Assembly (NCBI GenBank): GCA_963804995.1
Contig: CAWDSK010000005.1
Coordinates: forward strand, 1,254,457-1,318,456
From: an uncultured Acidobacteriota bacterium
GTDB taxonomy: Bacteria > Acidobacteriota > Terriglobia > UBA7540
DNA: 64,000 nucleotides
Direction of reading: 5' to 3'
The notes beneath the pieces are model-generated. The model searched no databases. It saw nothing but the letters and a program-made list of their open reading frames with translations, and was not told the DNA's origin. The position numbers and the translations under genes were made by a program. Of the stretch, positions 1,803-59,722 are shown one piece after another (within the stretch, counting starts at the first letter, position 1; the number at the start of each line of letters is the position of its first letter).

Positions 1803-2146
1803 TCGGCCTGGCGGCGGGGACCCGGATCTGGATCGTGGCGGGCGTGACGGATATGCGGCGGGGGTTTTTGGGACTGAGCGGAATGGTACAGACGGCCTTG
1901 GAGGAGAATCCGTTTTCCGGGCAGGTGTTTGTGTTTCGCGGGCGGCGTGGTGACCTGATCAAAGTGCTCTGGTGGGATGGCGACGGACTGTGTCTGTTTG
2001 CCAAGCGGCTGGAGCGCGGCCGATTCATCTGGCCCCAAGCCAGCAGTGGGGTGGTCTCCCTGACGCCGGCGCAGCTTGCCATGCTGCTGGAAGGGATCGA
2101 CTGGCGGCGTCCGGTGCGCAGCTACACGCCGCAGATGGCGGTGTAA
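1799..2146 (+). CDS. tnpB: IS66 TnpB accessory protein
   Basis: TDMRRGF..VFVFRGRRGDLIKVLWWDGDG..KRLERGRF. Confidence 0.93.
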   Translation: MIGLAAGTRIWIVAGVTDMRRGFLGLSGMVQTALEENPFSGQVFVFRGRRGDLIKVLWWDGDGLCLFAKRLERGRFIWPQASSGVVSLTPAQLAMLLEGIDWRRPVRSYTPQMAV

Positions 2147-2245
2147 ACCAGAAACGTTTCCTCTTGCGTATTTTGTTTGCAGATATTGCACTTTCGTGCG
2201 TTTTCTTCTTGCATATCAAAGAATATCTGGCATACTGTGGGCACG

Positions 2246-45790: not shown

Positions 45791-46615
45791 TTAACCGAAA
45801 ATCTGCTTCAGACCGAAATTACACCGTTCCCTCACGGCCTCTGGCGAAAGCTTTCTGGGGCCGGCCATCTGGGCAGCCTCGCGAATAGCGTCGTTCACAT
45901 TACCGAAAAGGTCGGTCGCTGCGTGTTCGATTTTTCGGACGCTGTTCGGGTGAATTCCCGGCTTCACTTGGGTGTCCCATTCAAGGCTTACATCTCCAAG
46001 CCTTGCACCGAATATTTCGAGTGTGTCATGGATGTATAGAATGTCCTTCGCGACTTTGCCGCGCCTGCGCTTATTGTGAATCAAAACTTTGTGAGCCAGG
46101 AAACTCGCCGGATTCGCAATCTGAACGTGCTTAGGCTCGACAAACGGAAATCCATTCGAGCGGTCGATGGCAACCGTCCAAGGGGCGTAAAGTAGGATTT
46201 CGAGATGGCGGAGTTGCTGTGAAACCACACCGGCTATTCGCCGCGTTACCTTTGGTTTTCCATCCCTTCCATGCTGGGCGCCAAATAACGGAGTCAAAAA
46301 CTCGGCGTAGAAGCCAGTCTTGGCGTCACCCAGGCGGTAGTGTGTCGCCGGTGGTTTGTCCTGACCTAATCGTTCCTCTTCGAATCCATTGGAGACTAAT
46401 CGTTCCCGGATGTCCTGACCTGTGACCGGCAGTCGAGGAGGGACAGCAACGTCGGTATCCAACGTCATCAACGGGATGTACGTAACCTGCTGTGCGTTGG
46501 GGTGAAGGCGATACAGCCGATAAGCCCACCCGCCAATAATCACTACATTCGCGAGCCACGGTTCAAGGGAAGCGATCAATCGAGCAAATGGCTCATTTTC
46601 GGGATGACCGTTCAT
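45791..46615 (-). CDS. Nucleotidyltransferase (GSU2403/AbiEii-like toxin)
   Basis: IIGGWA..TLDTDVA, FLAHK..KDILY; ATGA overlap with the upstream gene. Confidence 0.7.
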   Translation of the reverse strand: MNGHPENEPFARLIASLEPWLANVVIIGGWAYRLYRLHPNAQQVTYIPLMTLDTDVAVPPRLPVTGQDIRERLVSNGFEEERLGQDKPPATHYRLGDAKTGFYAEFLTPLFGAQHGRDGKPKVTRRIAGVVSQQLRHLEILLYAPWTVAIDRSNGFPFVEPKHVQIANPASFLAHKVLIHNKRRRGKVAKDILYIHDTLEIFGARLGDVSLEWDTQVKPGIHPNSVRKIEHAATDLFGNVNDAIREAAQMAGPRKLSPEAVRERCNFGLKQIFG

Positions 46616-47853
46616 CGATGCGCCTGCTGAATAGAAGGAGCCAGAACCCGTTTCCAGATTTGGTCCGCTTGTTCTTTGCCCCTCGTGGGATGATTCGACG
46701 CGTCCAACCACACCTGGAGAATATCCGACACAGCAACCCCCTCAGGTCGGACCACCGCCCGGAACACCGCCTCTTTGTTTTCCGGGATTCGAATGTATGC
46801 ATCCGGCTGTCCTTCCGCATCTTCGACCGAAAAGCCGAGCCGCTCCAGGGCGGCCGAGTTCAGATGCTCAAGGTAGATAGAAGGAGCGACTCCATGAACG
46901 AATCCGACCCCGAGCAAATCGGCCGCTGCAAACAGCCCGAGCGCGATGCGAGGAGCTGGCACAACGAGTCGGCCCACCCGCGGCTTTGGATGCCGCAAAA
47001 GGCTTCCATCCCGCCACGAGCAGTATGACCTAACAGCGGACAGAAGCTGTTCCTCACCGCCGCGGATGATCCAGCGTACCGGAACCTCACGCGCAGTTCT
47101 CTGGCTTGCGCCTTGCCACCGCCGCATCAGTTCTTCCCGCTTGACGAGGCGCAACAAACCTTTTCGATGGTCAAGGAAACCCTCGCTCAAGAGCTGTCGA
47201 ACCAAGCGGGAGGCGCTCATTACGGAAACGCCCGATGCCTGAGCAAGCTGCCTTCCGCTTCGATACTGACCGCGAGGAACGGTAAGCAGAGATTCCGGAA
47301 TGTCTTGCCCTAGCAGTATCTTGAGCATCCATTGGTTTAGATCTGAGAACAGGTACGCGGATGATTCACTCTGTATCGGCAACCCGAGTTGTGAACGGGT
47401 TGACCGCTCCGAGTTGAATTTTTCCAAGCCGAACCCATGAAAAACTCGAAATCCTTCCGAATCCATAACCCCGATTCCAACATTTGGCGCATGCCTCAGA
47501 GCGAATTGTTGGACCTGGGCGGCCACCGAATCGGAAATACGAGGGGAAGCAACTACAGCCACCGGGATGGCAGAGTTTGAAAAATGCCGCGCTGCCGCTT
47601 GTGCTTGTAGAATGGCTTGGGATAGAAGGGGAACTAGTCGGTCACGCCGACCCTCGGCGGACCGTTTGACTTCGATCACGTATTTCCGGTCCCCGGACTC
47701 TACAATCGCATCGGCTTGACCGTCGGCGGGCGGTTTGTCGTATATGCTCCAACCGGCTCGACGAAAGAGGTCCAGGAGAAGAGTTTCGAATTCCTTCTCT
47801 TGAGGGCGCTCGCGACGGTGAATCTGAGGAGGCATAGGTTGTACCGTGGCCAT
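46612..47853 (-). CDS. AbiEi-like antitoxin/regulator with an N-terminal PD-(D/E)XK-like region
   Basis: ADAIVE..VIEVK, HTH RQLAQASGVSVMSASRLV, C-terminal LQVWLD..RGKEQA; start uncertain. Confidence 0.6.
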   Translation of the reverse strand: MATVQPMPPQIHRRERPQEKEFETLLLDLFRRAGWSIYDKPPADGQADAIVESGDRKYVIEVKRSAEGRRDRLVPLLSQAILQAQAAARHFSNSAIPVAVVASPRISDSVAAQVQQFALRHAPNVGIGVMDSEGFRVFHGFGLEKFNSERSTRSQLGLPIQSESSAYLFSDLNQWMLKILLGQDIPESLLTVPRGQYRSGRQLAQASGVSVMSASRLVRQLLSEGFLDHRKGLLRLVKREELMRRWQGASQRTAREVPVRWIIRGGEEQLLSAVRSYCSWRDGSLLRHPKPRVGRLVVPAPRIALGLFAAADLLGVGFVHGVAPSIYLEHLNSAALERLGFSVEDAEGQPDAYIRIPENKEAVFRAVVRPEGVAVSDILQVWLDASNHPTRGKEQADQIWKRVLAPSIQQAHR

Positions 47854-48121
47854 GATATATACCACGGCCATGGTACATCGCTGGATGTTCCGTGTCAACC
47901 CGCCCGAGTTGTAATGCCCGAGTTGTAAAATCCGAGTCGCCTTGGCCACCAGACCAGGGAATGGGCGCGCACATGCATAGCAGCGTGTTGGTCGCGCGCG
48001 ACTACATGTTAAGCCTGGCGATTTTCCCTATCATGACAAGAACGTATGACAACGAGTTCATCTTCGGAGGCACCCATGGGATTTCAACGAGCCTGAATGG
48101 TTGATACGGCACACATGGGTT

Positions 48122-49669
48122 TCAGTTGCCGCCGGTTTCGAAGTCCATTGGTTCTTCGAGGCGAACTCTCAATTCCTTCAACCAAGTACGAGGGTTGGTG
48201 CCATGGGCGATGCGGCCCAGAAAGCGTAGTTTCCCGGCTATGTTGCAGCGGTTTTGCCGAATATCTTCCTTCGTGCCTGTAATGTAAACGGCGAGGAACT
48301 CCTCCATGGTTCGGGGCTTTGAAAAGAGATATGTAGCGTGGCCAAGCTGTGGCGTCTCTACGACCACACAATGCTCGAGCTCCAGGATGTACTCACTTCC
48401 AAAGAGATAAAGTCGCCGTGCTCGCTTGCAGAGCTCCTGGTAGAAGAAGGCATCGTAGTCCGGTTGCCAGTTAATCTGAGCGATGTCGAAGTTGCCGGGG
48501 ATGCCGAGGTTCCAACAGAGGCTGCGCAGTTGTCCCCTCTCCAACGGCTCGCGATCGATGCGGGCACGGACTTTGGCCAGGGCGTCGGAGAACTCACCGA
48601 AACGGTGGTAACTCTTCCGAGCGGTCTCAATTTGCTCAGCCATATCAGCCGGTAGCTTCACCTCGATGCGGCTCGGCAAGGCGGTTTCCCACTTAATCAG
48701 GTGCCACTCGCCACGCCGCTGGCGATACTTGCCCATTTGGACGAAGGTTCCCCGCAACTCGACCTTGGCGCCCATGAGATGTTTCCACTGGTTCCATGTA
48801 GCATCCCAAGCGATCGGCATGGCCGACTGGTCGAGTGTGACCTCAAGTTTCCTTCGGACATCGCGGTATATGGCGTGATCGTTGTGAAAGTCAAAATTGC
48901 GCAACGGCGCCCGGAAGCGGCGTTCCCGATGCTCGGGAGCGAAGGACAGGATTTGCGTGGCGAAGAACGTCTGCCCGTCCCGCGAGCGGTCTCCGGCGAC
49001 CAGAATCGAACCGAAGCCGCCATACGGGAAGAGCGCCGGTGACGAAGTGTCCTTCAGCAGCGAGTCATAACAAGCCCGTAACTCCGGCTGAGCCAGGATG
49101 TTGAAGGCTCGTTCCAAGGTGACACGATCAAGTTTGGAAGCACTGGATGCACGGAGTTCCAATTGGCGGAGATTGAAGGCAAGTCGCAGCTCAGCGGGCG
49201 ACGCAGACGCGCTGATCCGTAGAGTGTCATACAGGTTCGCTTGGCGCTCCCAGGCCTGGTGCCGTCTGGCGACATAGAAGTAATCGTGCACCACCTCGCA
49301 AGGCAGATGGATGGTGCCAATGCCCAGACGTCCCGCGGAAACCGCGGCCCGCACGTAGAGATGCTCTCGCTTGTCGGTCTTGGGCTGTGTGGCACAGCTG
49401 ATGGGAGCCTGGTAGAGATCGCGACTCCGAGTGGGGGACGAGGTCTTGTGAATGTAGAGTTCAGTCCCGGCGCCGGCGGAATTAATGGCCAGAGGGAATT
49501 CAATTTCGTCGCCGGGCCGGATATGTGCTCCCAGGAAGTTGGAGATGAGGATACTGCCGATATTGTTGAAGCAGCAGACAGTCTTGCCGCCCTCCTGCTT
49601 AAGCTCCGAGACAGAGCCACGGCGGATCGTCTCCGCCACTTCATTTGCCGATTGGGTGCTCGTCTCCAT
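48122..49669 (-). CDS. Hypothetical protein with a central J-domain-like segment
   Basis: NLYDTLRISASASPAELRLAF..AFNILAQPELRACYD, no HPD. Confidence 0.6.
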   Translation of the reverse strand: METSTQSANEVAETIRRGSVSELKQEGGKTVCCFNNIGSILISNFLGAHIRPGDEIEFPLAINSAGAGTELYIHKTSSPTRSRDLYQAPISCATQPKTDKREHLYVRAAVSAGRLGIGTIHLPCEVVHDYFYVARRHQAWERQANLYDTLRISASASPAELRLAFNLRQLELRASSASKLDRVTLERAFNILAQPELRACYDSLLKDTSSPALFPYGGFGSILVAGDRSRDGQTFFATQILSFAPEHRERRFRAPLRNFDFHNDHAIYRDVRRKLEVTLDQSAMPIAWDATWNQWKHLMGAKVELRGTFVQMGKYRQRRGEWHLIKWETALPSRIEVKLPADMAEQIETARKSYHRFGEFSDALAKVRARIDREPLERGQLRSLCWNLGIPGNFDIAQINWQPDYDAFFYQELCKRARRLYLFGSEYILELEHCVVVETPQLGHATYLFSKPRTMEEFLAVYITGTKEDIRQNRCNIAGKLRFLGRIAHGTNPRTWLKELRVRLEEPMDFETGGN

Positions 49670-50105
49670 ATGGAGTGCAGCATAGCCAGCCTGGGAGTCC
49701 GCGTCAAATGAGGTCTATTTGCTTCTAAGTTACACGTGCGTAACAAGATAATCGTGGACAAAATGGAAGGGGCGGACGCGGTGAACTTTTTTCCAGAGCA
49801 AACCAGCCGCCAGGCGTTGTGTCGTAAGGGGGAGTAACCCCTTGCTGTGGCACGATGGGTAAAGAATTACTGGAGAGGAATCCTACCAGCTATCAGGGGA
49901 CACAAGCAAAATTGCGGTAGACAATTCGGGATTTGCCTAAGGGCTTGAGCCAGAGGCAGGTCAAGAACTTCAATGGGAATCCGGCTGCCCGGCTATGTGA
50001 GTTCATAGACACTGCGGCGTTTTCTCGCGGCTAATGGTCGAGGACAGGCTCATCTACTGCGATTCTGCGCAGTTGCGGTTTTCCGGCGGGATCATAGTTT
50101 TTTCC

Positions 50106-50133
50106 TTGCATTCTTCCTGCGCCTGTAGTGTAA
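50106..50133 (+). promoter_or_regulatory. Probable sigma70 promoter of the tRNA operon
   Basis: TTGCAT ... TGTAAT, 12 nt upstream of the first tRNA. Confidence 0.6.
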
Positions 50134-50145
50134 TAGCTTGGTTGT

Positions 50146-50221
50146 GCCGACGTAGCCAAGCGTTCAAGGCACCTGCCCTGTAATCAGGAGATCGCTGGCT
50201 GAAAGCCAGTCGTCAGCTCCA
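50146..50221 (+). tRNA. tRNA-Thr(TGT)-like, atypical (C33, T-loop CTGAAAG)
   Basis: Acceptor GCCGACG/CGTCAGC, U73, CCA; loop CCTGTAA. Confidence 0.65.
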
Positions 50222-50230
50222 GAGTTGAAA

Positions 50231-50365
50231 ATGTTGAGATTCCCCAAACCCGGAACGACGTGCGACCGGCAAGGTAGGCCGTGCCGCATATTTGTGTGCG
50301 CCCATGGTCAGGTCGTCGATAACACCATCATGGCGACAAATCCAGGGCGCGGCGGGGGTGGGTAG
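50231..50365 (+). CDS. Putative attenuator leader peptide 1 (44 aa, ends PGRGGGG)
   Basis: MLRFPKPGTTCDRQGRPCRIFVCAHGQVVDNTIMATNPGRGGGG*, immediately before a terminator. Confidence 0.65.
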   Translation: MLRFPKPGTTCDRQGRPCRIFVCAHGQVVDNTIMATNPGRGGGG

Positions 50366-50394
50366 AATCCATAGCACAGTTCGGATTCCAAATC

Positions 50395-50422
50395 AGCCCG
50401 CCCAAAAAAGGCGGGCTTTTTT
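50395..50422 (+). terminator. Intrinsic terminator / attenuator 1
   Basis: AGCCCGCC-CAAAAAA-GGCGGGCT followed by a T run. Confidence 0.85.
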
Positions 50423-50424
50423 AT

Positions 50425-50435
50425 TGCTCTTTGAC
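50425..50435 (+). promoter_or_regulatory. boxA-like antitermination element
   Basis: TGCTCTTTGAC versus rrn consensus TGCTCTTTAAC. Confidence 0.65.
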
Positions 50436-50447
50436 GAACGTTCCTTT

Positions 50448-50523
50448 GCTGACGTAGCCAAGCGTTCAAGGCGCCTGCCCTGTAAGCAGGAGATCACTGG
50501 TTAAAATCCAGTCGTCAGCTCCA
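50448..50523 (+). tRNA. tRNA-Thr(TGT)-like, atypical (C33, T-loop TTAAAAT)
   Basis: GCTGACG/CGTCAGC; CCTGC-CCTGTAA-GCAGG; TCCA end. Confidence 0.72.
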
Positions 50524-50532
50524 GAGTTGAAA

Positions 50533-50667
50533 ATGTTGAGATTCCCCAAACCCGAAACGATGCGCGAACGGCAAGGTAGGCCGTACGGCATATTTGTGTG
50601 CGCCCATGGTCAGGTCGTCGATAACACCATCATGGCGACAAATCCAGGGCGCGGCGGGGGAGGATAG
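50533..50667 (+). CDS. Putative attenuator leader peptide 2 (44 aa)
   Basis: MLRFPKPETMRERQGRPYGIFVCAHGQVVDNTIMATNPGRGGGG*. Confidence 0.65.
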   Translation: MLRFPKPETMRERQGRPYGIFVCAHGQVVDNTIMATNPGRGGGG

Positions 50668-50690
50668 AATCCAGAGCACAATCGGATTCT

Positions 50691-50722
50691 AAAAAAGCCC
50701 GCCCTAAAAAGCGGGCTTTTTT
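50691..50722 (+). terminator. Intrinsic terminator / attenuator 2
   Basis: AAAAAAGCCCGC-loop-GCGGGCTTTTTT. Confidence 0.85.
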
Positions 50723-50724
50723 AT

Positions 50725-50736
50725 TGCTCTTTGACA
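50725..50736 (+). promoter_or_regulatory. boxA-like antitermination element
   Basis: TGCTCTTTGACA. Confidence 0.68.
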
Positions 50737-50756
50737 ACTGAAAGACCCAGCAGCAC

Positions 50757-50830
50757 AGGAGCATGGCGTAGTGGCAGCGCGGCGGTCTCCAAAACCGCAG
50801 GCGTGGGTCCGATTCCTACTGCTCCTGCCA
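50757..50830 (+). tRNA. tRNA-Trp(CCA)
   Basis: GCGGT-CT-CCA-AA-ACCGC; ends GCCA. Confidence 0.85.
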
Positions 50831-50831
50831 G

Positions 50832-50905
50832 GGCGCGTTAGCCAAGTGGAAAGGCATCTGCCTGCAAAGCAGACAACCTCGGTTCGATTCCGAGCCGCGC
50901 CTCCA
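50832..50905 (+). tRNA. tRNA-Cys(GCA)
   Basis: TCTGC-CT-GCA-AA-GCAGA; U73, CCA. Confidence 0.9.
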
Positions 50906-50906
50906 G

Positions 50907-51000
50907 GGTGGTCAGCACTGGTGTGCGGGCGGGCCCTATAAGCCTGTAATTGCCCCGGATCAGGGTGCACGGCAGAGTTCGATTCTCTGGACCACTACCA
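50907..51000 (+). tRNA. Atypical 94-nt tRNA, anticodon TAT (Ile codon AUA), long variable arm
   Basis: Acceptor GGTGGTC/GACCACT-A-CCA; D arm GCAC-TGGT-GTGC; GCGGGC-CCTATAA-GCCTGT; T arm CAGAG-TTCGATT-CTCTG. Confidence 0.75.
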
Positions 51001-51002
51001 TG

Positions 51003-51081
51003 GGGCTCGTAGCTCAGCCTGGAGTAGAGCGTCTCGCTACGAACGAGAAGGTCGCAGGTTCAAATCCTGTCGAGCCCTCCA
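51003..51081 (+). tRNA. tRNA-Arg(ACG)
   Basis: TCTCG-CT-ACG-AA-CGAGA. Confidence 0.92.
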
Positions 51082-51090
51082 TGTTTTTTC

Positions 51091-51169
51091 GGGCGCGTGC
51101 GGCCAAGCGGATCGGCCACCAGCCTCCTAGGCTGGCGATATGTGAGTTCGAATCTCACCGCGCCTTCCA
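51091..51169 (+). tRNA. tRNA-Arg(CCT)
   Basis: CCAGC-CT-CCT-AG-GCTGG; irregular D arm. Confidence 0.75.
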
Positions 51170-51170
51170 T

Positions 51171-51244
51171 GCCGGGCTCATCTAACGGCAAGATGTGCGC
51201 CCGATTAGCGCAACATCGAGGTTCAAGTCCTCGGCCCGGTACCA
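51171..51244 (+). tRNA. tRNA-Ile(GAT), atypical loop (C33, U37)
   Basis: TGCGC-CC-GAT-TA-GCGCA; ends ACCA. Confidence 0.78.
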
Positions 51245-51245
51245 C

Positions 51246-51319
51246 TCCTGGGTGGTTCAACGGTAGAACGCGCGGCTGTTAACCGCGAAATGGGGGTTCG
51301 ACTCCCTCCCCAGGAGCCA
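51246..51319 (+). tRNA. tRNA-Asn(GTT)
   Basis: CGCGG-CT-GTT-AA-CCGCG. Confidence 0.92.
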
Positions 51320-51325
51320 TATTGC

Positions 51326-51401
51326 GGGGCCAAGATGTTATTGGCGGCATACCCGCCTTTTAAGCGGAGAAGTCCGGGTTCGAATCCCGGTGGCCCCACC
51401 A
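51326..51401 (+). tRNA. tRNA-Lys(TTT)
   Basis: CCCGC-CT-TTT-AA-GCGGA. Confidence 0.85.
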
Positions 51402-51402
51402 T

Positions 51403-51476
51403 GCTGCGATAGCTCAGTGGCAGAGCCGCTGATTCGTAACCAGCAGACCGGAGTTCGATTCTCCGTCGCAGCTCCA
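51403..51476 (+). tRNA. tRNA-Thr(CGT)
   Basis: GCTGA-TT-CGT-AA-CCAGC. Confidence 0.88.
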
Positions 51477-51477
51477 C

Positions 51478-51553
51478 GGTGACTGAACCCAAACGGTGCG
51501 GGACCTGACTGTGGATCAGGTGTTAGCGGGTTCGACTCCCGTCAGTCACCCCA
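51478..51553 (+). tRNA. tRNA-His(GTG)
   Basis: G-1/C73; CCTGA-CT-GTG-GA-TCAGG. Confidence 0.88.
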
Positions 51554-51559
51554 AGATTC

Positions 51560-51633
51560 GGCCCTGTAGCGCAGACGAGCGCGGCTTCCTCCGAAGGAGC
51601 AGGTCATCGGTTCAAATCCGATCAGGGCCTCCA
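51560..51633 (+). tRNA. tRNA-Arg(CCG)
   Basis: GCTTC-CT-CCG-AA-GGAGC. Confidence 0.85.
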
Positions 51634-51707
51634 GCCGGCGTAGCTCAGTGGCAGAGCGCGTCCCCGGTACGGACGAAACCCGCGTTCGATTCGCGGCGCC
51701 GGCTCCA
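51634..51707 (+). tRNA. tRNA-Thr(GGT), C33
   Basis: CGTCC-CC-GGT-AC-GGACG. Confidence 0.82.
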
Positions 51708-51708
51708 T

Positions 51709-51784
51709 GCGGGCGGAATTCGAGCGGCAGAATACCCGACTCTTACTCGGCGAAGTGCGAGTTCAAGTCTCGCCGCCCGCACCA
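51709..51784 (+). tRNA. tRNA-Lys(CTT)
   Basis: CCGA-CT-CTT-AC-TCGG. Confidence 0.82.
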
Positions 51785-51790
51785 GGATTT

Positions 51791-51866
51791 GCCCCGTTAG
51801 CTCAGATGGTAGAGCGCCGGTCCTACAAACCGGAAGTCGGAGACTCGAACCCTCCACGGGGTACCA
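51791..51866 (+). tRNA. tRNA-Val(TAC), C33
   Basis: CCGGT-CC-TAC-AA-ACCGG. Confidence 0.8.
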
Positions 51867-51871
51867 GATTT

Positions 51872-51947
51872 GGGGGCGTCGTCTAATTGGGAGGACTCCA
51901 GTCCTGCAAACTGGCAACGAGGGATCGATTCCCCTCCGCCTCCACCA
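51872..51947 (+). tRNA. tRNA-Ala(TGC), C33
   Basis: G3:U70 pair; CCAGT-CC-TGC-AA-ACTGG. Confidence 0.8.
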
Positions 51948-51954
51948 AATTTGG

Positions 51955-52028
51955 GCGGTCATGGTTCAGTGGCAGAATCCGACATTGCCAGTGTCGGGGC
52001 GCGGGTTCGATTCCCGCTGACCGCTCCA
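51955..52028 (+). tRNA. tRNA-Gly(GCC)
   Basis: CGACA-TT-GCC-AG-TGTCG. Confidence 0.9.
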
Positions 52029-52029
52029 C

Positions 52030-52103
52030 GCGGCGTTGGTATATGGGGTGTGCCTCGGCCTTCCAAGCCGAAGAAGCGGATTCGATTTCCGCACGCCGCT
52101 CCA
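52030..52103 (+). tRNA. tRNA-Gly(TCC)
   Basis: TCGGC-CT-TCC-AA-GCCGA. Confidence 0.87.
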
Positions 52104-52109
52104 GATGTT

Positions 52110-52184
52110 CGGGATGTGGGGTAACGGGAGACCACCTGTCTTGGGGACAGGGCGGTGGAGGTTCAAATCCTCCCATCCCGACCA
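52110..52184 (+). tRNA. tRNA-Pro(TGG)
   Basis: C1; CCTGT-CT-TGG-GG-ACAGG. Confidence 0.87.
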
Positions 52185-52190
52185 GGTTGA

Positions 52191-52266
52191 CGGGAAGTGG
52201 CCTAGTGCTCAAGGCGCCGGTTTCGGGTGCCGGAGATCGCGGGTTGAAATCCCGCCTTCCCGACCA
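52191..52266 (+). tRNA. tRNA-Pro(CGG)
   Basis: CCGGT-TT-CGG-GT-GCCGG. Confidence 0.85.
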
Positions 52267-52272
52267 GATTAT

Positions 52273-52350
52273 TGCGGGCGAGTGGAACGGACAACCACGC
52301 GAGCCTCATAAGCTCGAAGATAACGGGTTCGACTCCCGTGCCCGCTACCA
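52273..52350 (+). tRNA. tRNA-Met(CAT), initiator-like (U1:U72 mismatch)
   Basis: CGAGC-CT-CAT-AA-GCTCG. Confidence 0.8.
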
Positions 52351-52355
52351 AGTTT

Positions 52356-52427
52356 GTCCTCATCGTCTAGCGGCCAGGATGCTTGGTTCTCAGCCAAGTG
52401 ACGCGGGTTCGAGTCCCGCTGGGGATG
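52356..52427 (+). tRNA. tRNA-Glu(CTC), CCA not encoded
   Basis: CTTGG-TT-CTC-AG-CCAAG. Confidence 0.88.
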
Positions 52428-52428
52428 C

Positions 52429-52505
52429 GGGGGCGTGGAGGAGTGGGAGTCCTCGCGGCACTGTCAATGCCGAGAACGCCGGTTCAAGTCCGGTCGTCCC
52501 CGCCA
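52429..52505 (+). tRNA. tRNA-Asp(GTC)
   Basis: CGGCA-CT-GTC-AA-TGCCG; G73. Confidence 0.9.
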
Positions 52506-52513
52506 AGTTTTGT

Positions 52514-52587
52514 GGCCTGTTCGTCTATCGGAAGGATGGCTGATTTTCAATCAGTCGAGGCGGGTTCGACTCCCGCACAGGCTACCA
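52514..52587 (+). tRNA. tRNA-Glu(TTC)
   Basis: GCTGA-TT-TTC-AA-TCAGT. Confidence 0.88.
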
Positions 52588-52597
52588 AAGGAGCGCT

Positions 52598-53800
52598 ATG
52601 CAAATCATCGACAACATTCCGGTGTGGGGAACCCAGGTTGACGAAGGTGCCTTGAAGCAAATCCGCACCTGCTACTGGATCTTCGGGCAGGCCGCGATGA
52701 TGGCCGATCACCACAAGGGCTACGGTGTTCCGATCGGCGGCGTCATTGCGCACGAATACTTAATCAGCCCCTCTGGTGTCGGTTATGACATCGGCTGCGG
52801 CAACAAAGCAGTGCTGACGGATGCCGACGCACACGACGTGCGTGCCAACATCGCCCGCATCATGGATGATGTTTGGTCAACGGTCAGCTTCGGGATCGGG
52901 CGCAAGAACCGCGAGGACGTTGACCACGAACTTTTCGAGAACGACGACGCTTGGCAGATTACCCAAGGGGCCAACAGCGCAGCATGGAAACTCACATCGC
53001 TGCGGGATATGGCTCGTGCTCAGCTTGGTACAGTTGGAAGTGGGAACCACTACGTGGACATTCTGCAGGACGAGCAGGAGCGAATTTGGGTTGGGGTTCA
53101 TTTTGGCTCCCGTGGTTTTGGCCACAAGATCGCCACGCGGTTTTTGAATCGAGCCGGCGCGAAGGACGATATGGACTCGGCTCCCGTTGCGCTTGATGCT
53201 CGAACTCAGGAAGGGCAGGACTATATCGCCGCGATGAAGCTGGCTGGCCGGTATGCCTACGCTGGCCGTGATTGGGTGTGCGATCGAGTGGTGAAAATTC
53301 TTGGCGCAAAGGCACTCGACTCAGTTCACAACCATCACAATTTTGCGTGGCAGGAGACGCACGGCGGAAAGTCGCTCTGGGTCGTTCGCAAAGGTGCAAC
53401 GCCAGCATTTCCTGGTCAGCGCGGATTTGTCGGCGGCACGATGGGCGAAAACTCCGTGATTCTGGAAGGCGTCGAGAACGACGATGCTTCACTGTCTCTC
53501 TACTCAACGATCCACGGTGCCGGTCGCGTCATGGGCCGGATGGAGGCCAAGGGCAAGCGGGACAAGGCAACCGGTGAGTGGAAGCGCCAGCCGAAGGTTA
53601 CCCAGGAGATGATGGACACCTGGGTGGGTGAAGCCAAGGTTGAACTGCGCGGTGGCGGAGTTGACGAATCGCCGCACTGCTATAAGCGATTACCGGAAGT
53701 CCTGGCCGAGCACTCCGCGTCGGTGCGAGTCCTGCACACGCTCAAGCCGCTCGGTGTTGCGATGGCTGGAAAAAACGAGTTCGATCCATTCAAAGACTGA
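52598..53800 (+). CDS. rtcB: RtcB RNA 2',3'-cyclic phosphate/5'-OH ligase
   Basis: GVGYDIGCG, QLGTVGSGNHY, HFGSRG, HNHHN, HGAGR, DESP..YK; AAGGAG RBS. Confidence 0.95.
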   Translation: MQIIDNIPVWGTQVDEGALKQIRTCYWIFGQAAMMADHHKGYGVPIGGVIAHEYLISPSGVGYDIGCGNKAVLTDADAHDVRANIARIMDDVWSTVSFGIGRKNREDVDHELFENDDAWQITQGANSAAWKLTSLRDMARAQLGTVGSGNHYVDILQDEQERIWVGVHFGSRGFGHKIATRFLNRAGAKDDMDSAPVALDARTQEGQDYIAAMKLAGRYAYAGRDWVCDRVVKILGAKALDSVHNHHNFAWQETHGGKSLWVVRKGATPAFPGQRGFVGGTMGENSVILEGVENDDASLSLYSTIHGAGRVMGRMEAKGKRDKATGEWKRQPKVTQEMMDTWVGEAKVELRGGGVDESPHCYKRLPEVLAEHSASVRVLHTLKPLGVAMAGKNEFDPFKD

Positions 53801-53876
53801 GGGAGCGTCGTCCAATCGCATAGGGCACCCGCCTTCTAAGCGGTGAATCCGGGTTGAAGTCCCGGCGCTCCTCCCA
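53801..53876 (+). tRNA. tRNA-Arg(TCT)
   Basis: CCGC-CT-TCT-AA-GCGG; begins directly after the rtcB stop. Confidence 0.8.
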
Positions 53877-53893
53877 AGCCTCGAAGAGGTTTT

Positions 53894-54436
53894 ATGTCCG
53901 ACACTCTCGTTCTCAACACGCTGGGTTTCCCGGTGGGCTTTGTCTCCTGGCAGCGGGCTATCAATTTGCAATGGCAGGACCGCGCCGTGGTGGTCACGGA
54001 AGATGCGAAGCGCATCCTCCGCTCGCCGTCCTTCGAGATGGGGATGCCACGCGTCATCAAGCTGAGGAACCATATCAGCCGGAAGCTGCGGCTGAAGGTT
54101 CCGATGTCTCGCCGTAACATCGCGATCCGCGATAACAGCTCGTGCCAGTACTGCGGCGTGGTGCTGGAAACGGCGGAGTACACCATTGACCACGTTCTGC
54201 CCAGGGCTCGCGGCGGAAGTTCGGTCTGGACGAATCTTGCGCTTGCTTGTGTCCAGTGTAACAAGCGCAAATCGGATCGAACTCCTCAAGAGGCTGGACT
54301 TACGCTCAGGCAGAAGCCTCTGGAGCCTAACCAGTTCGACCCGAGATTCAATTTCCGGCTGCACATCCACGCGTTGCGGCCGGAATGGTCGGACTACAAG
54401 GCTTACATTTATTGGAACGTCGAGCTTGAAAAGTAG
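53894..54436 (+). CDS. HNH endonuclease (McrA-like) within the tRNA array
   Basis: TLVLN, RDNSSCQYCG, TIDHVLPRARGG..WTNLALACVQCN. Confidence 0.9.
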   Translation: MSDTLVLNTLGFPVGFVSWQRAINLQWQDRAVVVTEDAKRILRSPSFEMGMPRVIKLRNHISRKLRLKVPMSRRNIAIRDNSSCQYCGVVLETAEYTIDHVLPRARGGSSVWTNLALACVQCNKRKSDRTPQEAGLTLRQKPLEPNQFDPRFNFRLHIHALRPEWSDYKAYIYWNVELEK

Positions 54437-54438
54437 TT

Positions 54439-54514
54439 CCCCGGTGAGCAAGCGCGGTCGTTGCAATGGTCTGAAAAGCCATAGAGTCCCGTTCGACTCG
54501 GGGACCGGGGACCA
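54439..54514 (+). tRNA. tRNA-Phe(GAA)
   Basis: ATGGT-CT-GAA-AA-GCCAT. Confidence 0.82.
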
Positions 54515-54519
54515 ACCAC

Positions 54520-54593
54520 TCTGGCCTCGTCTAATGGTAGGACGGCTGACTTTGAATCAGCTAATCTTGGTTCGATTCCAGGGGCCAGAGCCA
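54520..54593 (+). tRNA. tRNA-Gln(TTG)
   Basis: GCTGA-CT-TTG-AA-TCAGC. Confidence 0.92.
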
Positions 54594-54594
54594 C

Positions 54595-54669
54595 TGCGAG
54601 ATCGTTTAATGGGTAGGACTCCAGATTCTGAATCTGGCAATGCTTGTTCGAATCAAGCTCTCGCAACCA
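54595..54669 (+). tRNA. tRNA-Gln(CTG)
   Basis: CCAGA-TT-CTG-AA-TCTGG. Confidence 0.9.
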
Positions 54670-55098
54670 GGAAACCAGGAATCCGGAAGGAAACCGGGAA
54701 ACCGGGGGCGTTTACGAGAGTGCCTGGCCCCGGCATCAGAACATAACCGCCGAGCAGAAACCCCAGCCGCTACCGGGAAGCCTTCAAAACGTCGATCAGC
54801 AGCGCGTCCTCTGATTCATGGAATCGCTTGATCTTGGGGCGAAGGTTCACGCAGACGAAGAAAATGCAGTCGGTAACACGCAGCCGATGAACGTTGGACA
54901 CGCCGGCAGGTTAACACCACGTCCCCGTACCTTCAAGGAAGAACCCACGCAGAAAAGCGCTGACCGTGAAGTTACGAGCTCTACGACGCTTGTTTCAGGG
55001 CATCAAGAATCGGCAGAATCGCGCCCCAGTATTGGAACAGATCCTGCCCTCCGGTTTTTGTCACGGGATGCTCGCTCCTCTGCTTGCGGGGGCGGCGG

Positions 55099-56199
55099 TT
55101 ACTTTCCCGACCGCAGGATTTTCTCCACCGTGGGCTTCAGATCAGGAAGCATGGGCCCCTCCAGCCCATGAGAGAATGCTGTATGGAATGCCCGCGACTT
55201 CGCTTTAATGGTCGCGTACCGCCGGTACACTCGCTCCTCGAAGGGTAGGTTGCCATCTTCCACTTCCTCTTCTTGCTGCCAGGTGTCGAAGATGGATTGC
55301 TCGTCGAGCTCTGGCAACGACTCAAACCATTCAAGCTGAGAAAGCGGCGGATCTCGCTTCTGGTAGTGTGAGCGGAGGGTATTAATCTCGTCTGGGCCCA
55401 GCGCTTTCCGAAGCGGGAGGAAGTTGGATTGGTCAAAGAGCACCCCGACAGGTGGGCTGAATCCAAATTTCCGATGCAGCGCCACAGGAAAGAGGGAAAT
55501 CGGGCTGTTGTTCACTGCAACGTCGAGGATGGCCCGAACAGTAGGATGGACCAGGCTTACCCAATACCGAGTCTGAGGCCCATTTGGCACGTTTAGATTC
55601 GTTCCGCGTATTGCGGTGACAGCCTCCTTGATCAGCGGCTTGTGTGAGTATGAACATAGCCGTCTGTAAATATTCTCGAAATCCCTCTTCTTTATCGCGA
55701 CGCCCGGCACTTCAAGGGCACGAAAGATTTCGTTAATCACGCCCCTGAATGGTGGCGAATCCTTTTTCCCATCGAGCCACGAATAGAGCCGTTCATAGTC
55801 TTCCTCAAAGCGTAGCTTCTCCTTCCACCAGTAGTGAAAGGTGACTAGCTCCAGAGCAGAACGAAGGGCCGCAAAAGAAGCGTGGAGACAACCGTTGAGC
55901 CCCGCAAGAATTGCCTCGCGGAGCACAGCTATGCTCTCGAAGAAGAGGTAGTTTTTTTGGGTGAACCTCCCGCGCACTGGCAGGCGAACATCTTGGAGGT
56001 CTTGGAATTCTAGGATTGCCTGGCAACTCCACACCGTGTTTTTCCACTCGCGCTCCTCAGGGAAGCCCGCGGAGCCCAATAACCGACACGCGTGGTCCCC
56101 AACCTCGGAAAGTTCGTGGCGCTCGATTCCCCAAACGTCACGCATCGCGAGCTCGCCCACGGGCTCCCGAAATGTCCGTGCCAATACATGAATTTCCAT
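55099..56199 (-). CDS. Hypothetical protein (possible HEPN-like R..LE / Y..LCSYSH motifs)
   Basis: 366-aa ORF; ALRSALEL..IYRRLCSYSH. Confidence 0.55.
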   Translation of the reverse strand: MEIHVLARTFREPVGELAMRDVWGIERHELSEVGDHACRLLGSAGFPEEREWKNTVWSCQAILEFQDLQDVRLPVRGRFTQKNYLFFESIAVLREAILAGLNGCLHASFAALRSALELVTFHYWWKEKLRFEEDYERLYSWLDGKKDSPPFRGVINEIFRALEVPGVAIKKRDFENIYRRLCSYSHKPLIKEAVTAIRGTNLNVPNGPQTRYWVSLVHPTVRAILDVAVNNSPISLFPVALHRKFGFSPPVGVLFDQSNFLPLRKALGPDEINTLRSHYQKRDPPLSQLEWFESLPELDEQSIFDTWQQEEEVEDGNLPFEERVYRRYATIKAKSRAFHTAFSHGLEGPMLPDLKPTVEKILRSGK

Positions 56200-56381
56200 A
56201 TACTATTGCCTCCCAGGGATGTCCGAACGTTTGTTCGTGATCCGCACCAATGCCGTCATTCTCCCCGCAGACGATCCTTCTGCTTGCCGTTCTAGTCACT
56301 CATGACCGTCGACCGCGCGCAGTGGACCCTGTCGTTCCGATTGTCGGATGCGCAACTGGGAACGGAGTAGCTGGTAGCCAG

Positions 56382-56948
56382 TCAACGCTGTTGCCCGGTT
56401 GCCGGCGCTGGTTGCTTCCCAGCCTGCCTAATCTGTGCCAGGACCCAGAGCGCATGTCGCGATTGGACCGACCCTGCTGCCTCAGCGAAACCGGCAACTT
56501 GTTGTTCAAAGCTCTGATCGGAGACAAATGGCGCTAAGCGGCAATACCAACGAAATTCTCGCGGCGTTTCCTGTCCCTGAATTCGAGCAATGATGACTTG
56601 TTGCAGCCTGTTGCGTTGATCTCCATTAAGAGAAGCTTGGCGCAGAGGCTTGATCATGTCCGCCTTGAGATACCCCGACCGGAAGAACCAAGGATCGGCT
56701 TCAAGAAACTGCACCACCAGCTCAATCGTGCCGGGATCCTTCTTCGCCAGGAGAGACATTGCTCTCCCGAGCCCTCCGGGAAAAGCGAGGTTATCGTACC
56801 GAAGGTGAAACTGCAGGCACGCCTCTTCCCAAGCCTTCCTGTTACGAGCCTTCCGGCGTTTATCGCCTTCATTGCGACGGGCGAATGTGGCGTGGACTGC
56901 ATCGTCCAAGTCCTGGATTTGAGCCGCATTTGATTTAAATACGTTCAT
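56382..56948 (-). CDS. Hypothetical protein
   Basis: 188-aa ORF with GAGG before the ATG. Confidence 0.55.
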   Translation of the reverse strand: MNVFKSNAAQIQDLDDAVHATFARRNEGDKRRKARNRKAWEEACLQFHLRYDNLAFPGGLGRAMSLLAKKDPGTIELVVQFLEADPWFFRSGYLKADMIKPLRQASLNGDQRNRLQQVIIARIQGQETPREFRWYCRLAPFVSDQSFEQQVAGFAEAAGSVQSRHALWVLAQIRQAGKQPAPATGQQR

Positions 56949-57225
56949 CCTCGAAATCGCTTTTCTCTAACTCACACCCCTAAACGCTTCATTCACGGTA
57001 GACGCTAACGCGACTGTAGCCGTTCACCTCGCGTACGTCGAACCGGACCCGCAAGAATTGCTGGATGACCTGCATGTTCGTTTTGGCATGCATGTTCATT
57101 GCTACGGACGGTTGGGCGCTTTGACTGGTTTTTCATTGTGGCACTCCCCGGCCCCGGTTCATCGAAGAAGGCCGAATCTCTAATCTTAATTCCATATCAG
57201 AGTCTGTCAAAGAAAGGAAATTTGG

Positions 57226-58259
57226 ATGCGCTGGGCTGGGCGTATACGCATGGGCTATTTTCCGCTACCACTTTCCGAAGCGGAGCGGATTCGCAGATTT
57301 CTCATGTTTCCAGATCAACTCTCGTCGGCGCTAGATCCCTGCGTCGGCGACGGAGGGGCTTTCGAGGTCATACCAGCAGCGCCCAGGTGCTTCGCTATGG
57401 CATTGAGCTTGATGCATACCGCGCCGAGCAGGCCAGGGAGCGGATTGCCAACGTGCTCCAGGCCAATACATTAGAGGTGCAATGCCCGGTCGAAAGCTAC
57501 TCCCTCGGATTCTTCAATCCCCCTTATGATTGGACCCTAGAAGCTCCAGCAGAAGGTCGTAGCGGTCGCGTCGAGCAGGTTTTCCTGAGCCACACTTTTC
57601 GTTGGCTGAAGCCGGGCGGGGTTCTGGTACTCGTGATTCCCGGAGAAAGACTCGCCGACTGTGGCCAAATTCTCGTCTCACAGTTTCGTGACGTTCGGAT
57701 CTATCGGTTGGAAGCGCCTGAGTGCGTGCGGTACAAGCAGGTGGTAGTCCTTGGCTTGCGGCGGGATCGCCGCGAGCGGCAGCGTATGCATGACTCGGAC
57801 ATCACCTGTGGGCGGCTCCAACTCGCCAGCCTGGCAAGAAACGCCGCACAGCTTCCCGTCCTGCCTGCTGAACCCGATGCGCAATATGGCGTGCCACCGG
57901 GCGGGCCAGTCCAGCTTGCTTCTCGCGGACTCCCCCTTGATGAAATCGAGGACCTGCTGCCGCAATCGGCCGCTTACCGCCAGGCAGGCCGCATCCTCTT
58001 TGCCGATCAGCGCTCCACTTCGGGGCGACCACTCACTCCTCTTCACGGCGGCCACACGGCGTTACTGGCCGTGAGCTCTTTGTTGGATGGGATCTTTGGG
58101 TCAGAAAATGATCGACATCTGGCTGCGTGGCATTCGGTAAAGGTCGTAGACAAGAATGAGGAAGAGGAAGATGGCGTCGTAACGATCACCGAGCGCGAAC
58201 ATTTTTCGAATGAATTGACGCTCATTTTTGAAAGCGGCCATGTTGCCACGCTCAAATGA
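57226..58259 (+). pseudogene. SAM-dependent DNA methyltransferase (DUF6094-like), frameshifted near 57371
   Basis: GYFP..LDPCVGDG in one frame; YGIELD..NPPY..LKPGGVL in the next. Confidence 0.75.
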
Positions 58260-58403
58260 TTCCGCCGCAAACGCTGCTTCCCACCTCAGGCGAGTTTCAA
58301 AACCTGAGAGAAAGGAGGTGCAATAGGCCTCGGCCACAGGAGGTGGTGGTCGAGGCTTCTACTATGCGCGCAGTGCGCGCCGGAAAGTTGCGGAAGGAGG
58401 CCC

Positions 58404-59156
58404 ATGAGAAACGCGCATGGGCGCTTCGGGATTCTTGAATTCACGAAGCGGATGAAAGACACTACTACTCACATCCGGCTGCGCCTGGACCGGCTCGTTT
58501 GTGAGGCCGAAAAGGAGAGGTCGAAGATTCACATCCTTTCGGTTCTTGGTGGGGACTCGGACGTGGGCGCCATCTGGGCAGCTATCAAGGAAGAGAGTTA
58601 CTTCACGGTCCAGGGTCCGGGGATTGATCCGATAACCGGCAGTCTGGGCGCCGACGCACAGTGTTTTCGCGGGACGATCACCATCGCTGGTCGAAGGCCG
58701 ATTCGGCACCTGGTTGCCCTCTCTGCCGAGGTGGCAAAGACCCGGCCGGGAGCCGACCGGGAAGGCAACCGCACGGTGCTATGCGACGACGATCCGACGT
58801 TTGTGCTGTATCGCGTCGCGCAACGGTTCGGGCTGCCGGTGGTACCGGAATGGGCCGACTGGTTCAACGCGGAACTCAACCGGCGAGGGGCGGTCAGGCC
58901 GTTGTTTGGACTGGGGTGCTCGCCAGTCCTGGTGTCCGGCACGAAGAAGAGTTTTCTGAAATGGATCGGAAGGGCGCTTCGACGGAAACAAATCCAGTTC
59001 CCCGATGAAAATGGCCCGGTCCGCTGGACTCAAACCAACAGCTTCTTCCCAGTTGGGGAGACTGATTTGGAGGCGGGAAGTCAGCGGGGTGAAAGCAAAG
59101 ATAGTCCCGCCATCCCAGAGGAGCGTGAGGACACGACACCATGCGAATCGCACTAA
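58404..59156 (+). CDS. Hypothetical ICE protein
   Basis: GGAGG RBS; lies in the methylase-helicase module. Confidence 0.65.
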   Translation: MRNAHGRFGILEFTKRMKDTTTHIRLRLDRLVCEAEKERSKIHILSVLGGDSDVGAIWAAIKEESYFTVQGPGIDPITGSLGADAQCFRGTITIAGRRPIRHLVALSAEVAKTRPGADREGNRTVLCDDDPTFVLYRVAQRFGLPVVPEWADWFNAELNRRGAVRPLFGLGCSPVLVSGTKKSFLKWIGRALRRKQIQFPDENGPVRWTQTNSFFPVGETDLEAGSQRGESKDSPAIPEEREDTTPCESH

Positions 59157-59617
59157 AGGTTACCAGTAGTAACGAGAACTGCAACGGAGGGTGCGAATTC
59201 GCCCTCGTGGACCTAAATTCGGAGCTTGCTTCGCTCGCATTGAGAAGGATTGCGGTGCTCAGAGAACAGAAGAACCTCGACCCCGACATCGACGAAACCT
59301 ACTTTTGGGCTTACTTTGTGGAATGCTACTTCGATCCTTGGGCTGAGTCGTCGGATGACGTGAAGGAGAGTGACGGCGCGAGTTCCGCGGTGACGGACAT
59401 ACTCAACGATCTCGATATCGAACTTGATGAAGTCGTCTGTGTGCCCGAGAATTTCCAGGTACCACCCAGTCAGTGTGCCATCGTCGAGTGCGAGCAGATG
59501 GTAGTTTCGGCGGATTCTATTTCGTTCACGGCCATCCCGAGACATGCCAGCCTTCGCGTCGCAACAGCAGAAATTCCGATCACCATGCTCGAAACGGCGG
59601 CAGCGCCAGCGCGTTAA
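59141..59617 (+). CDS. Hypothetical acidic protein
   Basis: 158-aa ORF overlapping the upstream stop. Confidence 0.55.
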   Translation: MRIALKVTSSNENCNGGCEFALVDLNSELASLALRRIAVLREQKNLDPDIDETYFWAYFVECYFDPWAESSDDVKESDGASSAVTDILNDLDIELDEVVCVPENFQVPPSQCAIVECEQMVVSADSISFTAIPRHASLRVATAEIPITMLETAAAPAR

Positions 59618-59722
59618 TCACTCTCGTCCGACGTTTCTCCATTACCCCCTCGTCCTCACCTGCCTATAACACACCCACCCCCGCAATCCTTCATTTGACG
59701 TAACTCGAAACGGAGGAGACCA

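Follow-up and report, generated by a model that had tools for sequence, protein, structure and literature searches.

The DNA analyzed here, hereafter the window, is a stretch of 64,000 nt from an uncultured Acidobacteriota bacterium (Terriglobia; UBA7540; assembly GCA_963804995.1, contig CAWDSK010000005.1, positions 1,254,457 to 1,318,456 of the forward strand). It carries two tandem leader units of about 300 bp (50146-50447 and 50448-50745), which sit between a conserved promoter and an operon of 26 tRNA genes, an RtcB RNA ligase gene and an HNH endonuclease gene. Comparative sequence analysis and RNA-folding models lead us to favor, with moderate confidence, the view that each unit is a ribosome-dependent (leader-peptide) attenuator and that the two act in series, opening when translation stalls. 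The operon would then probably be switched on only when protein synthesis falters.

Inspection of the window sequence agrees with the layout given in a preliminary description of this DNA. The two units are 92% identical over 288-290 nt, lie on the plus strand and share one order of parts: a tRNA-Thr(UGU)-like gene, a 44-codon open reading frame (ORF) that starts 9 nt after the CCA of the tRNA gene, a small hairpin, an intrinsic terminator and a boxA-like element. In unit 1, the tRNA-like gene (50146-50221) is followed by the leader ORF at 50231-50365, with its ATG at 50231, its TAG at 50363-50365 and a peptide ending in PGRGGGG. The small hairpin (50363-50390) pairs GAATCC (50365-50370) with GGATTC (50383-50388), so that its 5' arm begins within the stop codon, and the terminator (50395-50423) consists of an 8-bp stem (50395-50417) with 7 G-C pairs and a T6 run (50417-50422), after which the boxA-like element occupies 50424-50439. 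The corresponding parts of unit 2 are the tRNA-Thr(UGU) gene at 50448-50523, the ORF at 50533-50667 (44 codons at 50533-50664 and TAG at 50665-50667), the hairpin at 50665-50691, the terminator at 50690-50723 (a GCCCGC/GCGGGC stem lengthened by A/T pairs, then T6) and the boxA at 50724-50741. The tRNA-like gene of unit 1 has a C31-U39 mismatch and C33, and we call it degenerate because it reaches only 41.6 bits with the Rfam tRNA model, compared with 65.3 for unit 2, and because ARAGORN calls the second gene only. The unit 2 tRNA has C33 instead of U33 (loop CCTGTAA), and the leader-linked tRNA-Thr of the divergent relative L115 has a canonical loop. In many relatives, the tRNA-like gene is missing from the first unit.

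A sigma-70-type promoter (TTGCAT-17 nt-TGTAAT, preceded by a T-run) was read from the sequence at 50106-50134 on the plus strand, and its predicted transcription start lies about 5 nt before the tRNA-like gene of unit 1. A consensus scan missed this promoter because its -35 box matches at only 3/6 positions, and most of 53 distinct metagenome loci have a T-run and a CTTGCAT-17 nt-TAnnAT block ahead of their first unit. Terminators 1 and 2 are the two best terminator-like sites within 49600-55200. The first tRNA of the array begins about 33 nt after terminator 2, and there is no space for a second promoter between the two. The array can therefore be transcribed only by reading through one or two strong terminators, which must be regulatory unless the array is dead.

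Short Gly-ending ORFs with a terminator, for which the preliminary description suggested a search at homologous loci, were found there. Of 36 other genomes in the family, 13 have the unit, and a scan of metagenome contigs gave 80 loci, within which a nucleotide profile recognized 138 units; none of the 24 genomes searched from other families of the class has it. When 400 genomes sampled evenly across the phylum were searched with a peptide profile, four other weak partial matches came up (18-22 bits, E 8.6e-4 to 6e-3), which we took as noise, and plasmid records gave no match. A syntenic array was present in 10/10 scanned loci from relatives. Among distinct loci having at least 250 nt downstream, 51/54 have a tRNA within 300 nt, and the tRNA after the last unit is nearly always tRNA-Trp or tRNA-Cys, about 35 nt away. 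Promoter, ORF, hairpin, terminator and boxA are conserved among 113 distinct units whose peptides can be as little as about 62% identical. On this comparative evidence, the leader is an integral, conserved head of this array family.

Two gates in series, as the preliminary description proposed, are the commonest form, although not a universal one: among 63 distinct loci, 43 carry two units, one carries three, 12 carry one and 7 are not judgeable, which gives 44 of the 56 judgeable loci with gates in series. Single-unit loci were counted only where there was room for another unit on both sides. One locus without a nearby tRNA, L109, has a reverse-transcriptase-bearing group II intron (RVT_1, E = 1.9e-41; 1681-3128) directly after the terminator T-run. 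Class C introns are known to insert after intrinsic terminators (PMC4424553), and the insertion point of the L109 intron, a possible member of that class, agrees with the terminator assignment. The junction letters of this intron recur as a loose end at window position 50724 in the RNA-library run X19. Other natural variants are L088 (959-1168; the same in L090), a naturally weakened gate with a TAA at codon 8 and a mismatch in the terminator stem, and the first units of L079-L082, in which the T-run is broken.

On comparative grounds, the leader ORF is really coding and is hence predicted to be translated. The preliminary description had noted that both window copies keep frame, length and stop, and this extends well beyond the window. 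ATG, frame and TAG are retained in 29/29 distinct copies from relatives, with 41-44 codons. Of the 138 metagenome units, 4 are cut by contig ends and 2 lack an ATG at the expected place; in L115, GTG followed by CTC replaces ATG TTG, which keeps Met-Leu and the 46-codon frame, and L114 begins with the same sequence prefix. Among the remaining 132 complete units, 130 have 43-46 codons and end in TAG without exception, and the 2 with an early TAA represent one sequence (L088/L090). The full set comprises 86 distinct peptides. After removal of duplicates, of the early-stop units and of four first units lacking four consecutive T, the alignment comprised 113 units; each of them has an ORF of 41-46 codons, and indels occur only in multiples of three. 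Terminal Gly residues likewise differ in number by whole codons, with six in L085 (217-425) and three in L042 (1489-1690).

The ratio of nonsynonymous to synonymous changes (pN/pS) gives the same picture and also locates the constraint. For codons 28-44 it is 0.22 (27 sequences) or 0.25 (90 sequences) in the ORF frame, compared with 0.76-3.3 in the two other sense frames and 0.45-2.24 in the three antisense frames. Synonymous divergence in these codons is 0.22, as high as in the rest of the ORF, and the constraint is therefore on amino acids and not on RNA pairing. Codons 2-9 are intermediate (0.48-0.64), and codons 10-27 are almost neutral (0.74-0.85). An antisense ORF of 54 codons lies over each leader (50213-50377 and 50515-50679, minus strand); it was rejected as not coding, with a pN/pS of 2.24 in the conserved part and a start codon in only 90/113 units.

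What the preliminary description overlooked is that the last 13-17 residues (TIMATNPGRGGGG) are near-invariant at the protein level over the 86 distinct peptides. The four terminal Gly codons change at third positions only, in agreement with the synonymous difference already noticed between the two window units (GGT GGG versus GGA GGA). The residues closest to the peptidyl-transferase center are conserved at the peptide level, as expected of an arrest peptide. This near-invariant C-terminus, which ends in four Gly followed by TAG, suggests a nascent-chain role and may represent a new motif for arrest or slow termination. Searches for a peptide family gave three unrelated single matches in Pfam (15 members, E up to 10), one meaningless match in NCBIfam and no usable match in the ESM Atlas; a likeness to ribosomal protein L34 was considered but found no support in these scans and was dropped. 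Gene callers have recorded the ORF as a hypothetical protein in 10 clusters.

The leader is predicted to fold at -79.9 kcal/mol (z = -4.61 relative to shuffles; 0/200 shuffles as good), and the terminator hairpin is stable in 113/113 aligned units, from -11.1 to -20.7 kcal/mol with a mean of -15.4. The Gly-codon stretch GGCGGG (50351-50356) is complementary to the terminator 5' arm CCCGCC (50397-50402), which the preliminary description had put forward as a possible antiterminator. In models of the nascent RNA, where the 3' arm of the terminator is not yet made, the G-run pairs with this arm and leaves the small hairpin apical. The predicted antiterminator thus spans 50351-50402 in unit 1, where Gly codons 41-42 provide the G-run, and 50653-50703 in unit 2, where 50653-50658 pairs with CCCGCC at 50698-50703 around the hairpin at 50665-50691. 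We modeled a ribosome by masking a 30-nt footprint at set codons and computed partition functions for the 113 units, counting pairing at P > 0.5. The arm and the G-run pair in 109/113 units without a ribosome and in 105-113 of 113 for P-site positions from codon 1 to codon 36. Moving the P site to codon 38 leaves the pairing in 90/113 units, to codon 40 in 1/113, and to codon 42 or the last codon in 0/113. In these models, the anatomy yields a switch with a threshold about five codons ahead of the stop.

According to the mechanism we propose, a ribosome that translates the leader to its end would sit on the last five or so codons and the stop, mask the G-run of the Gly codons and melt the small hairpin. 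With the G-run masked, the terminator would form and RNA polymerase would stop, which would be the default OFF state. If the ribosome did not reach the end, the G-run would pair with the terminator 5' arm, the terminator would be blocked and the polymerase would read on. Such a stall could result from tRNA loss or cleavage, from antibiotics that target the ribosome, from starvation and possibly from the rare codons AGA, AGG and ATA. Translation of the last codons is probably slowed or halted by the near-invariant TIMATNPGRGGGG end or by the Pro-Gly/poly-Gly/TAG context, and a ribosome parked there would keep the G-run covered for the roughly 55 nt that the polymerase must still travel to clear the terminator. 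Once past it, a boxA might recruit a Nus-type antitermination complex and so shield the 4.5 kb, mostly untranslated transcript from Rho. Two gates in series would multiply the attenuation, giving less leak, a tight OFF state and a sharper response.

The boxA label, also taken from the preliminary description, is supported by a comparison with the ribosomal RNA operon (rrn) leader of the same genome, and the element is a putative factor-binding site. The 16-mer after terminator 2 also follows a hairpin in the 16S rRNA leader (contig C6, minus strand), where a strong promoter-like TTGACA/TAGTAT precedes the hairpin and the boxA 16-mer comes after it. The array elements resemble the rrn-type boxA in following a hairpin, and boxA 2 also in the identity of this 16-mer. 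They differ in that the preceding hairpin is here a complete intrinsic terminator, T-run included, and in that a tRNA operon carries two such elements in its leader. The exact 12-mer core has only the two array sites in the genome. One mismatch admits 46 further sites compared with 39 for a reversed control, and one-mismatch matches are therefore uninformative.

Metatranscriptome contigs from two peat studies cover both leader ORFs and some array tRNAs; DNA carry-over is possible, and such contigs show neither transcript ends nor levels. Contig word depth is about 80-670 over the leader ORFs (runs X1 and X3) compared with about 0-77 over the array, with dips at the terminators and no cover in bins 49900-50169; we give these depths no weight. 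The leaders are thus present in RNA libraries, a weak hint of expression.

Several observations weigh against the proposed attenuation. A weak Shine-Dalgarno sequence (GAG) precedes the ATG by 6 nt. When the complete RNA is folded with no ribosome on it, the structure of lowest energy contains both the terminator and the small hairpin and pairs the C-rich codons 4-8 with the G-run, and the outcome for an untranslated leader therefore depends on folding kinetics. At -10 to -15 kcal/mol, the antiterminator is less stable than the terminator (-11 to -21 kcal/mol), although the same holds for the trp attenuator. Covariation, which the preliminary description had suggested as a check, supported no helix: RNAalifold on 28 units gave a covariation term of only -0.73 kcal/mol, and in the 113 units the covariation score was 0.097 compared with 0.099 in shuffles (466/500 as high), with 87.6% of cells paired compared with 87.4%. 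Pairs changed on both sides numbered 8 compared with 3.9, a value reached by 6/500 shuffles, and none of them lay in the terminator; changes in the small hairpin at the stop codon were mainly to G-U pairs. The pairing of GGCGGG with CCCGCC, widely predicted as it is, is also no better than other synonymous ways of encoding PGRGGGG would provide. When the last seven codons of the 113 units were recoded synonymously by genomic codon usage, the mean duplex energy was -9.62 kcal/mol compared with -9.98 for the natural sequences (mean z -0.29, median percentile 0.53, best tenth in 1/113), and the pairing therefore follows from encoding PGRGGGG. Gly may have been selected because its codons are rich in G, or the pairing may be a side effect. 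Finally, 12 of the 56 judgeable loci have a single unit, and the conservation of the C-terminus at the peptide level is not explained by a sensor of ribosome position alone.

The codon content of the leaders also bears on what is sensed. As the preliminary description stated, the two peptides together use 18 amino acids, with no Ser or Trp, and contain AGA, AGG and ATA, which are among the rarest codons of the genome's long ORFs and are read by array tRNAs. These codons are kept in most of 27 copies (AGA 26/27, AGG 26/27, ATA 23/27), but the overall enrichment of rare codons is marginal (5 observed compared with 2.1-2.2 expected, P ~0.05) and adds to the points just listed. There is no run of codons for one amino acid in codons 2-37, and the sole run, the four Gly, lies in the masked part. 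The absence of a single-amino-acid run and the marginal enrichment fit a general sensor rather than a specific one of the trp/his type.

A fuller account, in which the leader controls an emergency translation kit, is more tentative, and as a whole we consider it rather unlikely. With a ribosome parked by the conserved peptide over the antiterminator, the two serial gates would hold the mobile tRNA/RtcB operon silent, and a failure of elongation, for example through tRNA cleavage by anticodon nucleases or toxins, would open the gates and supply tRNAs together with the ligase. RtcB would reseal the cut tRNAs, and the C33 anticodon loops of several replacement tRNAs may resist such nucleases. If this account were true, the leader would be a direct sensor of tRNA integrity with a feedback loop to tRNA supply.

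It is also conceivable, but in our view unlikely, that a specific signal and not general translation failure sets the outcome. The leader would then be a nascent-peptide (arrest-peptide) sensor whose conserved C-terminal residues contact the ribosome tunnel, and whether the ribosome stalls at a defined codon would hinge on a single ligand, class of drugs or factor, such as release factor 1 acting at the invariant TAG. Near-invariance of the last 13-17 residues while third positions vary freely, combined with the almost neutral middle of the peptide, is consistent with this, since a conserved C-terminus and a free middle are typical of arrest peptides, and TAG in 130/130 full-length metagenome units points the same way. 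However, pairing in the hairpin stem also constrains the G of TAG and would be enough to account for the conserved stop; the peptide has no homology to any family; and no result points to a ligand. A ribosome stalled on the final codons would cover the G-run and favor termination, and a sensor of this kind therefore needs a further step.

Selection at the peptide level would also be expected if the ORF encoded a small basic protein acting in trans, its terminators merely ending its gene and the array being silent or dependent on leak-through, with no switch at all. The separate terminator of each copy, the RNA-library contigs over the ORFs and the hypothetical-protein records in 10 clusters agree with such a gene, and leader peptides with an additional function in trans are known (peTrpL; PMC7298713). 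We nevertheless regard this as distinctly unlikely. The ORF is found only at the heads of tRNA arrays, in constant orientation between promoter and array, and its tandem copies have been retained. About half of the peptide evolves with almost no constraint, and no fold or family was found for it. The array has no promoter of its own, and a boxA directly after each terminator is sensible only if the polymerase reads through.

A dead array is very unlikely. Here the terminators would be constitutive, and the units would be duplicated tRNA and terminator modules of a decaying mobile array, with the ORF kept for another reason. Signs of decay do exist, namely the degenerate tRNA of unit 1, the early TAA and weakened terminator of L088/L090 and the broken T-run of L079-L082, and the spread is patchy (13/36 family genomes). 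Yet the conservation of all parts over 113 distinct units is unlike decay, and the RNA-library contigs cover array tRNAs too, a weak point on the same side. A structured noncoding RNA switch (riboswitch- or T-box-like, perhaps tRNA-binding) with an incidental ORF is highly improbable, for although the leader is very stable and nonrandom and adjoins tRNA genes, it has a coding signature with in-frame indels only, a synonymous Leu change from TTG to CTC beside the GTG start of L115, no covariation, and no Rfam leader, T-box or riboswitch family at the gathering threshold, where only tRNA matches pass (Thr_leader 35 bits compared with a threshold of 55, Leu and Trp leaders 21-25 bits, all three in the terminator part only; no T-box match). 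The interpretation given in the preliminary description is partly supported: leader ORFs with a coding signature and real-looking intrinsic terminators do stand before a tRNA/RtcB operon, and leader-peptide attenuation is the reading that we prefer.

The gated operon begins with a block at 50757-52587 of 21 tRNAs called by ARAGORN and two tRNA-like genes recognized by Rfam only. It continues on the same strand with the RtcB gene at 52598-53800 (PF01139, E = 7.8e-71) and with tRNA-Arg(tct), the HNH endonuclease gene (53894-54436), tRNA-Phe and two tRNA-Gln genes at 53801-54669. Besides the 26 ARAGORN tRNAs of the array, the genome has 46 dispersed ones that form a full set, and the array is therefore supernumerary. 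It has no Leu, Ser, Tyr or Ala tRNA, and some relatives have a second array (Tyr, Leu, Ser) upstream of the promoter and first leader and hence outside the gates (L005, 446-1226, and several metagenome loci). The tRNA-like gene at 50907-50996 is 90 nt long with a long extra arm, has no ARAGORN call and gives a subthreshold match of 26 bits to Rfam tRNA-Sec; the gene that ARAGORN identifies in this slot in relatives is a 94-nt tRNA-Ile(tat). Another one at 51872-51944 (Rfam tRNA 47.2 bits, no ARAGORN call) may be a degenerate copy of the tRNA-Ala(tgc) that relatives have at about this place.

The nearly universal U33 is replaced by C33 in 4/26 array tRNAs and in 0/46 dispersed ones. The four are Thr-UGU (50448-50523), Ile-GAU (51171-51244), Thr-GGU (51634-51707) and Val-UAC (51791-51866), and several other array tRNAs differ from the housekeeping isoacceptors at positions 37/38. 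These loop differences recall phage tRNAs that reportedly escape anticodon nucleases via loop changes (PMC10264068).

The neighboring genes at 45791-49669 and 55099-62077 comprise an Mrr_cat nuclease, NTP_transf_8, a DUF6094/MADS-like methyltransferase, an SNF2/DpdE-like helicase and several ORFs without a family, and they look like a mobile or defense island. No clear prophage genes were found in the flanks, where PHROGs matched the helicase only, and PADLOC gave weak MADS-like and DpdE-like matches.

Compared with the attenuators of the amino-acid operons of enterobacteria (trp, his, thr, leu, phe), the units share a short leader ORF and an intrinsic terminator just before the genes. They also share, as predicted here, a mutually exclusive antiterminator with one strand in or next to the ORF and the same logic, in which a ribosome at the end leads to termination and one stalled upstream to read-through. 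In contrast to these attenuators, the sensing part has no codon run for a regulated amino acid, the ORF is longer (44 codons) and its C-terminus is conserved at the peptide level, and the output is tRNA genes and an RNA ligase instead of biosynthetic enzymes. There are also two gates, often a tRNA gene 9 nt upstream of the start, and a boxA after each terminator.

General sensors of translation stress are known among upstream ORFs (uORFs). The whiB7 uORF of mycobacteria responds to translation stress in general, including knockdown of tRNAs and tRNA synthetases (bioRxiv 10.1101/2023.06.02.543512). It resembles the leader described here in its longer uORF of mixed composition, its Rho-independent terminator and its antiterminator, but it belongs to another phylum and has no sequence similarity, an Ala-rich uORF that varies between species, a transcription factor as output and a single gate. 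The toiL uORF of the E. coli topAI-yjhQ operon senses five classes of ribosome-targeting antibiotics, which stall ribosomes at different codons (PMC12121999). Unlike the present leader, it does not rely on an intrinsic leader terminator; instead, the ribosome-binding site is occluded and Rho terminates transcription within the downstream ORF.

The closest parallel on the side of the output is the tRNA L-array of Anabaena PCC 7120, which is silent, is induced when translation is impaired and is co-regulated with rtcB (PMC8421152, PMC10272220). The window array likewise has more than 20 contiguous tRNAs that duplicate a full dispersed set, a patchy distribution and a link to rtcB, here with RtcB inside the operon; these are the features of an L-array, a type of long tRNA gene array that spreads horizontally. 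The Anabaena array is controlled by the repressor TrcR, which acts at direct repeats over the -10 box (PMC8421152), whereas attenuation is proposed here; the words leader, attenuat- and terminator are absent from that paper. A scan of the window for the TrcR repeat motif gave a single site, at 22813 and with one mismatch, and nothing near 50106-50140. The preliminary description knew of no comparable arrangement. This needs qualifying in that uORF sensors of translation stress and a stress-induced array are known, but it holds for their combination: in the literature searched, which excluded most subscription journals, no tRNA array was found to be described as controlled by a leader-peptide attenuator. 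The mechanism class is thus known (trp/his leaders, the whiB7 uORF, toiL), and its use on a tRNA array is apparently new.

Long tRNA arrays are widespread, and the way in which they are switched on is known for one case, the repressor of Anabaena. The system described here is compact, with about 300 bp per gate, and abundant in Acidobacteriota of peat and soil (80 metagenome loci, 86 distinct peptides), and its natural variants with one, two or three gates, early stops or weakened terminators make the model directly testable. Leader-peptide attenuation is the oldest known ribosome-sensing device. If our reading is true, bacteria of another phylum would use it to make the provision of tRNAs and an RNA-repair ligase respond directly to how translation is faring, and sensor and remedy would be parts of the same process.

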